NCBI RefSeq assembly: GCF_003334255.1
Contig: NZ_QOWU01000042.1
DNA: 47,091 nt
Reading direction: 5' to 3' (one strand)
Origin: Escherichia coli
GTDB lineage: Bacteria; Pseudomonadota; Gammaproteobacteria; Enterobacterales; Enterobacteriaceae
Each line of letters opens with the position of its first letter. Position 1 is the first letter of the stretch. Below are positions 44,129 through 44,587 of this stretch, piece after piece. The notes beneath the pieces were generated by a model. The model did no database searches. It was not told the origin of the DNA and saw nothing but the letters and a program-made list of their open reading frames with translations. The position numbers and the translations under genes were made by a program.

Positions 44129-44228
44129 GAGATTTCCTCCAGTTTCCTGCCTGGAGTATAGGCAACGGCTGTGCACTCTTCACCGCTAAATTCAGCAGAT
44201 TGCGAGACGCCTTCCAAAGAGATTTAAG

Positions 44229-44251
44229 TGCCGGGCGACAGGCACCCGGCA
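44229..44251. terminator. hairpin 3' of the ahr remnant (tgccggg / cccggca stem)
   Basis: 7-bp inverted repeat with a 9-nt loop read in sequence; no clean T-tract. Confidence 0.35.
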
Positions 44252-44257
44252 AAGGGA

Positions 44258-44392
44258 TCAGAAGTCGGCTTTCAGGACCACGCGGTAGCGCGCTTTACCA
44301 TCGCGTACATGCTGGATGGCGTCGTTAATTTTCGACATCGGGAACAGTTCGCCGCCCGCTTCTTTTGCGGCATAGCTTTTTATCATCGACAT
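44258..44392 (-). pseudogene. ahr: in-frame internal-deletion remnant of aldehyde reductase Ahr/YjgB (44 codons)
   Basis: Minus-strand ORF below the track cutoff encodes [44 protein letters not shown]: the first 16 and last 28 residues of the 339-aa Ahr as recalled, joined in frame. Confidence 0.7.
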
Positions 44393-44530
44393 TTTTGGGT
44401 CCTTCTCTGGTGTTGTTTGGGAAGTGTAGAGCATGGCAGGGCGGGGTGCCTGGAGTGTGACAAAGGTTACATATCGCTGAGTGTAATGCTGAAAATTTCA
44501 GCACTTAGCGAGGTGGGTGCAAGCTGGCGC

Positions 44531-44558
44531 TTGCATGGTGGCGTGCGACAGGTATAAT
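44531..44558 (+). promoter_or_regulatory. sigma70-type promoter of leuX (-35 ttgcat, 16-bp spacer, -10 tataat)
   Basis: Near-consensus hexamers about 30 bp upstream of the mature tRNA 5' end. Confidence 0.55.
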
Positions 44559-44587
44559 CCACAACGTTTTCCGCATACCTCTTCAGT

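Follow-up and report, generated by a model that had tools for sequence, protein, structure and literature searches.

The yjgR-leuX region of an Escherichia coli strain most probably carries a widespread idn-less allele together with a recent, clone-specific lesion in ahr

In Escherichia coli K-12, the GntII locus (idnK and idnDOTR; b4264-b4268) lies between yjgR and ahr, and the genes that flank it, lptFG, yjgR, ahr and leuX, are the same as those in the 47,091-bp stretch of E. coli DNA analysed here (hereafter, the window). The variability of the idn genes among E. coli is already known from published pangenome work. The idnODRKT genes were found in 83% of pks-positive compared with about 31% of pks-negative genomes and vary within ST95, one clade of which is without them (PMC8545132); idnK is present in ST131 H41 and absent from H30 and H22 (PMC5369007); and HUS-associated STEC are enriched for L-idonate catabolism genes (PMC4216125). 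The subsidiary GntII route has also been brought up by other authors in relation to gut colonisation.

The leuX-associated islands, which are integrase-mediated and involve the 3' end of the tRNA gene, occupy the same neighbourhood and likewise make the set of genes next to leuX variable. The idn genes differ from these islands in that they lie 5' of leuX, past ahr, and come without an integrase or a tRNA 3'-end repeat. In E. coli C, the type strain ATCC 11775 and O26 strain RM10386, the gene order is the same as in the window, but ahr has its full 339 codons. We consider it very likely that the region from 44129 to 44587 of the window is an ordinary idn-less yjgR-ahr-leuX allele that bears, in addition, one recent, clone-specific lesion in ahr.

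A tblastn search of the whole 47-kb window with the five K-12 Idn proteins recovered distant paralogues only, with matches to IdnR (21% identity, 20581-21474) and IdnO (27% identity, 27586-28278). Thus, the window contains none of the genes idnD, idnO, idnT, idnR and idnK that constitute a GntII, or L-idonate, locus, and the claim of an earlier note on this DNA that no idn genes are located between yjgR and leuX is borne out both by this search and by the map of open reading frames. The K-12 gene order that was given in that note (yjgR-idnR-idnT-idnO-idnD-idnK-ahr-leuX) agrees with the K-12 locus, and the separation that it estimated at about 130 bp, between the yjgR start at 44128 and the stop of the ahr remnant, is a gene-free gap of exactly 129 bp (44129-44257), with the ahr stop codon beginning at 44258. 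The yjgR and ahr genes are adjacent, with no intervening gene, which is the layout annotated in E. coli C, ATCC 11775 and the O26 strain, and the spacer between them, including the hairpin that follows ahr, is homologous to that of other idn-less genomes.

The yjgR gene (42626..44128, minus strand) is an intact open reading frame that translates into a 500-aa DUF853/HerA-like ATPase and is annotated as yjgR in the matching genomes. Its product shares 98.4% amino acid identity with K-12 YjgR over residues 1-487; at the DNA level, the gene is 99.9% identical to that of E. coli C and only 95.9% identical to that of K-12. At the other end of the region, leuX, the gene for tRNA-Leu(CAA) (44588..44672, plus strand), is intact as identified by ARAGORN and by an Rfam tRNA match of 59.4 bits. 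The ahr-leuX intergenic region (44393..44587), which comprises the divergent upstream regions of the two genes, is intact by sequence comparison as well, with 100% identity to E. coli C, ATCC 11775 and O26 RM10386 and 97.5% identity to K-12.

The homology between the window and K-12 stops at 44167, 39 bp upstream of the yjgR ATG, and resumes at 44258, that is, at the ahr stop. Between these breakpoints, the window holds a 90-bp segment specific to the idn-less allele (44168..44257, minus strand), and K-12 holds the 5,087-bp idnR-idnT-idnO-idnD-idnK cassette. In a blastn comparison, 44168-44257 showed no match to the K-12 locus, and no idn remnants were detected in these 90 bp by local alignment to the K-12 cassette: the best score was 23 compared with a mean of 21.2 for shuffled sequences, and 48 of the 200 shuffles scored as high. 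A 28-nt match inside the cassette of Citrobacter FP75 was taken as a chance resemblance, given that it was reached by 1 of 200 shuffles and is located well inside the cassette, off any junction.

The 129-bp spacer as a whole matches that of E. coli C at 100% identity, is nearly identical to that of E. albertii and is clearly homologous to that of Citrobacter werkmanii. Two short blocks, CGCAA and GAATTT, are also present upstream of yjgR in Enterobacter cloacae and Pseudocitrobacter, in register with the shared GTTGCCTATACT motif, and are missing from the idn-bearing alleles of K-12, CFT073 and Citrobacter sp. FP75. Because the 90 bp have no counterpart in the K-12 cassette, they appear to belong to an old alternative allele rather than to a fresh deletion scar; and because they are not derivable from the idn-bearing allele, the idn-less junction cannot be made by simple deletion. 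The K-12 cassette is bounded by short repeats at the chance level only. A 19-nt imperfect direct repeat located inside yjgR and ahr (L001 6018-6036 and 11276-11294, in the coordinates of the K-12 locus) was rejected as a candidate because a deletion between its copies would remove parts of both genes, contrary to observation.

The idn-less segment includes the hairpin that had been noticed between yjgR and ahr, which maps downstream of ahr at 44229..44251 (minus strand) and folds, as RNA, into a 9-bp stem with a 5-nt loop. On the ahr strand, this hairpin lies 6 nt past the stop codon and is followed by the U-rich tail CUUAAAUCUCUUU, and a terminator scan produced a terminator-like match at 44247-44226 of the minus strand. 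The stem is retained in E. albertii; in C. werkmanii, the hairpin sequence differs, and a stem seems to form at the equivalent place, as judged by eye from the alignment. A stem that is kept despite sequence change is as expected of a functional ahr terminator, and the hairpin is probably the intrinsic terminator of this gene. In contrast, K-12 lacks the ahr hairpin, and the idnK stop there is 3 bp from the ahr stop. The fold z-score of the 129-nt spacer is -1.15, so that the local hairpins alone are notable and a structured RNA spanning the whole spacer is not supported. Among Rfam-type RNA families, the tRNA was the sole match from yjgR to the leuX-distal genes. A promoter scan yielded no sigma-70-like site upstream of yjgR or ahr, and the single match that it returned overlaps the leuX 3' end.

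The frequencies of the two states were estimated in a collection of 5,426 complete E. coli genomes. The idn query, consisting of the K-12 cassette (5,087 bp; L001 6104-11190), matched in 2,055 of these, always on the chromosome and with a median of one copy per genome; a single match covered only 5% of the query and corresponds to the gene for another LacI-family regulator, leaving 2,054 genomes with real idn. A second query extended from yjgR across the spacer to leuX and had to be covered to at least 80% in a single place; by this measure, yjgR and ahr-leuX are contiguous (within about 1 kb) in 3,372/5,426 genomes. The sizes of the two sets sum exactly to that of the collection (2,054 + 3,372 = 5,426); thus, as judged from the set sizes, idn DNA never co-occurs with a contiguous yjgR-ahr-leuX arrangement, and no relocated idn copy is indicated in the idn-less genomes. 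The presence of idn genes elsewhere, which the earlier note had named as the finding that would overturn its reading, is counted against by the same sum.

A 191-bp query centred on the junction was covered to at least 80% in 3,212 genomes, and in idn-bearing genomes the match to this query ends at its base 68, which is position 44167 of the window. The idn-less state, represented by E. coli C, the type strain ATCC 11775 and O26 RM10386 among others, makes up ~62% of the collection, and the idn-bearing state of K-12, shared by strains such as BL21, HB101 and CFT073, is the minority (38%). The absence of idn in this strain is ordinary and is not a lineage-specific rearrangement. Genes that are missing relative to K-12 at this locus should not be taken for genes that were deleted, considering that K-12 itself represents the minority state. 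Of the proposal that idn was either never present in this lineage or lost from it, the absence stands; the strain carries a widespread, old idn-less allele, and nothing points to loss in this lineage. For idn, the rearranged K-12-like ancestor that this proposal implied is not supported. The strain is predicted to have no GntII route for L-idonate or 5-ketogluconate.

The lesion in ahr has a very different distribution. The remnant (44258..44392, minus strand) is an in-frame fusion of 44 codons, the translation of which consists of Ahr residues 1-16 and 312-339; compared with the intact ahr of E. coli C, 885 bp (295 codons, 17-311) are missing in frame. Mapping of the breakpoints against E. 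coli C places the deletion junction at a 7-bp microhomology, CAGTTCG (44345..44351), which is found at both breakpoints of the intact gene (L003 6746-6752 and 7631-7637, in the coordinates of the E. coli C locus), and slipped or illegitimate recombination between the two copies is the likely cause of the deletion. The 44-aa product scores 42.1 bits against the NCBIfam model AldhRedAhr, for which the cut-off is 470, and matches only its last 30 positions (306-335). The remnant is without the catalytic and cofactor-binding parts and falls outside the Ahr (YjgB) NADPH-dependent aldehyde reductases, which are full-length, 339-aa zinc-type alcohol dehydrogenases; the annotation of strain G1/2 lists ahr as a partial pseudogene. 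The predicted phenotype is the lack of the Ahr aldehyde reductase.

A 101-bp query over the ahr deletion junction was fully matched in three of the 5,426 genomes, those of strains G1/2, G6/7 and G8, three strains contained in the probiotic Symbioflor 2 (PMC4358396). Over at least 24.9 kb, a stretch that takes in the deletion junction, the window and these genomes (CP060083, CP060061 and CP060057) are 100% identical. The same degree of identity, 100% over 24.9 kb, was observed for strains B-1109 and VG12A2, and in B-1109 ahr is intact. The existence of this near-identical relative with an intact ahr, together with the frequency of 3/5,426, indicates that the ahr deletion is very recent and clone-specific. 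The deletion would have arisen in the immediate ancestor of the Symbioflor 2 clone that comprises G1/2, G6/7 and G8, for which its junction is a handy marker. The earlier count of at least two rearrangements in this lineage does not hold, the 885-bp ahr deletion being the only one that is lineage-specific. The complete Symbioflor genomes differ from the window in the DNA downstream of leuX, where they have an IS1 copy inside the AbiJ-NTD4 gene, and the window has no IS1 at this place.

Comparison of six E. coli loci suggests that each of the two alleles could have spread by homologous recombination through the flanks. The ahr gene and the ahr-leuX region are 99.8-100% identical among the idn-less strains, which we take to represent phylogroups A, B1 and B2, even though pepA differs by 1.3-1.7% among them; the same regions differ by 2-5% between the idn-less and the idn-bearing strains. 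The idn cassettes of K-12 and CFT073 are 99.2% identical, with pepA differing by 3%. Furthermore, yjgR is unusually polymorphic, in that strains of different allele type share 93.5-96% DNA identity in this gene compared with 98-99.8% for its neighbours lptF and lptG. The idn-bearing strain CFT073 and the idn-less strain ATCC 11775 presumably both belong to ST73.

Taken as an accessory block, the GntII cassette (idnK plus idnDOTR) would replace 90 bp of the ahr-yjgR spacer in idn-bearing strains, and in the idn-less allele the ahr stop would be succeeded first by a terminator-like hairpin belonging to ahr and next by the native yjgR upstream region. Homologous recombination within the core genes on either side, close to the leuX hot spot, has probably transferred the alleles from one E. 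coli lineage to another, which would explain the patchy presence of idn even within sequence types. The strain studied here most likely inherited the idn-less allele, or acquired it by recombination, without deleting idn itself.

The outgroups that bear on the age of the two alleles are a handful of genomes: among the YjgR matches listed, most contigs come from Betaproteobacteria, and six enterobacterial loci near Escherichia were usable. In Citrobacter sp. FP75, the same site is occupied by ahr-idnK-idnD-idnO-idnT-idnR-yjgR, and the idnR-yjgR junction is homologous to that of K-12. Another contig (L087 1-14107), which we denote Salmonella-type because its IdnD falls in a protein cluster named Salmonella enterica, has the order int-leuX-ahr-idnK-idnDOTR-lptG-lptF-pepA; yjgR is wholly absent from it, and only 205 bp separate idnR from lptG. 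The idn genes of FP75 and the Salmonella-type genome show 77-83% DNA identity to those of K-12, compared with 80-88% for the flanking core genes; the idn divergence is similar to, or above, that of the flanks, and there is thus no sign of recent cross-genus transfer. C. werkmanii is polymorphic in that the type strain is idn-less and other isolates have IdnD. Empty and idn-bearing alleles accordingly both occur in Escherichia and in Citrobacter, and the idn-bearing one also in the Salmonella-type genome; as far as can be judged by sequence comparison, the two alleles both predate the species and occur in several genera. Such sharing would be a modest example of the exchange of accessory metabolic cassettes via conserved flanks.

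Other contexts were observed for both the cassette and the site. In Kluyvera intermedia (CP011602.1; L088 7261-12274), the five-gene idnK/idnDOTR cassette is located between metallophosphatase and chemoreceptor genes, an unrelated context which indicates that the cassette moves as a unit. A gene for a glycerone (dihydroxyacetone) kinase of ~548 aa occupies the site between ahr and yjgR in Enterobacter cloacae and Pseudocitrobacter faecalis (L007 8217-9863 and L008 8225-9901, minus strand); it was identified by TIGR02361 with 575.8 bits, just above the cut-off. The G+C content of the K-12 cassette is about 0.47, compared with about 0.54 for its flanks.

The idn-less state could, alternatively, reflect recent loss, with an idn-bearing ancestor deleting the 5-kb cassette in one of two recent rearrangements on the leuX side. 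The adjoining ahr did undergo a recent deletion, so that the region evidently can lose DNA, and leuX is a known hot spot for islands. Such a loss is nevertheless very improbable, to the point of being close to refuted: the junction agrees with that of E. coli C in every base and is present in at least 3,212 genomes, the 90 bp that are absent from the idn-bearing allele could not have been created by simple deletion, homologous spacers are found in E. albertii and C. werkmanii, and B-1109, the relative with identical sequence and an intact ahr, is also idn-less. That idn was relocated elsewhere in this genome, with the pathway retained, is a negligible prospect in view of the lack of idn homologues in the 47-kb window, the exact sum of the idn-bearing and contiguous sets, and the membership of G1/2, G6/7 and G8, in which the locus is 100% identical, in the contiguous set. 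The chance that idn, the middle of ahr, or both were lost through a collapsed or mis-joined assembly is just as minute, given that three independently finished complete genomes are identical across the ahr junction and that the idn-less junction is present in thousands of complete genomes.

A more distant loss has considerably greater merit, and we regard it as plausible, if somewhat short of an even chance. Under this scenario, idn already adjoined ahr in the progenitor shared by Escherichia, Salmonella and Citrobacter, and a single ancient replacement of the cassette gave rise to the idn-less allele, which then spread by recombination. Indeed, idn adjoins ahr in E. coli, in Citrobacter sp. 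FP75 and in the Salmonella-type genome, and the homology between the K-12 and FP75 junctions, along with idn divergence that equals or exceeds that of the flanking genes, fits an idn-bearing ancestor equally well. However, replacement of the cassette leaves the origin of a 90-bp spacer with a working-looking ahr terminator unexplained; the CGCAA and GAATTT blocks are shared, in register, with Enterobacter and Pseudocitrobacter, which are idn-free at this site; and the cassette is found elsewhere in Kluyvera and has a G+C content below that of its flanks. The two short shared blocks, the modestly lower G+C of the cassette and the Kluyvera context provide limited support for the opposite polarity and weakly tilt the balance towards an ancestral spacer and an idn cassette that would be an ancient insertion.

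A broader generalisation is speculative and, in our assessment, rather unlikely to hold. The ahr-yjgR spacer might be a long-lived cargo slot with three states (empty, idn and glycerone kinase), in which case the distribution of idn would amount to a trans-species presence/absence polymorphism that is shaped by niche-dependent selection on the use of L-idonate and 5-ketogluconate and by flank-mediated recombination.

Beyond leuX (44673-47091), the window encodes an AbiJ-NTD4-domain protein of 274 aa (45206-46030, plus strand), a hypothetical protein of about 190 aa (46079-46651, minus strand) and a truncated IS3-family transposase, the open reading frame of which starts at 46754; no integrase was found in this segment. 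At least 80% of the segment is covered in about 461 genomes, including E. coli C and ATCC 11775, which share the post-leuX genes of the window (the AbiJ-NTD4 protein and others), and in the relatives IS30 and the fec operon lie beyond it. The 23-nt 3' end of leuX is present in a single copy in the window and in a single copy in the K-12 locus, with no att-like copies. An excision scar of a tRNA-associated island was also considered and rejected, as the combination of an integrase with direct repeats of the tRNA 3' end was not found.

The spacer on the opposite side of yjgR, between lptG and yjgR (42508-42625), also has two alleles in E. coli. A 118-bp form with a GC-rich, BoxC-like palindrome (CCCCTCGCCCCTTTGGGGAGAGGGTTAGGGTGAGGGG) is present in the window, E. 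coli C, ATCC 11775 and the O26 strain, and a 160-bp REP-type form is present in K-12, CFT073 and E. albertii. The BoxC-type form is covered to at least 80% in 1,800 of the 5,426 genomes; its use as a marker of the idn-less state was dropped in view of the incomplete linkage (1,800 compared with 3,372 genomes).

Finally, the yjgR leader and proximal upstream region (44129..44167, minus strand), which is common to the idn-less and the idn-bearing alleles and is kept in all 9 sequences aligned, contains a TATACT hexamer, a CTCCAG-N8-CTGGAG hairpin and a GGAGGA ribosome-binding site. The hairpin (44137-44156, minus strand), which was also seen in the RNA fold and the 3' arm of which overlaps the ribosome-binding site, is kept in both types of alleles, with one change in the Citrobacter version, and could be a candidate translational control element.
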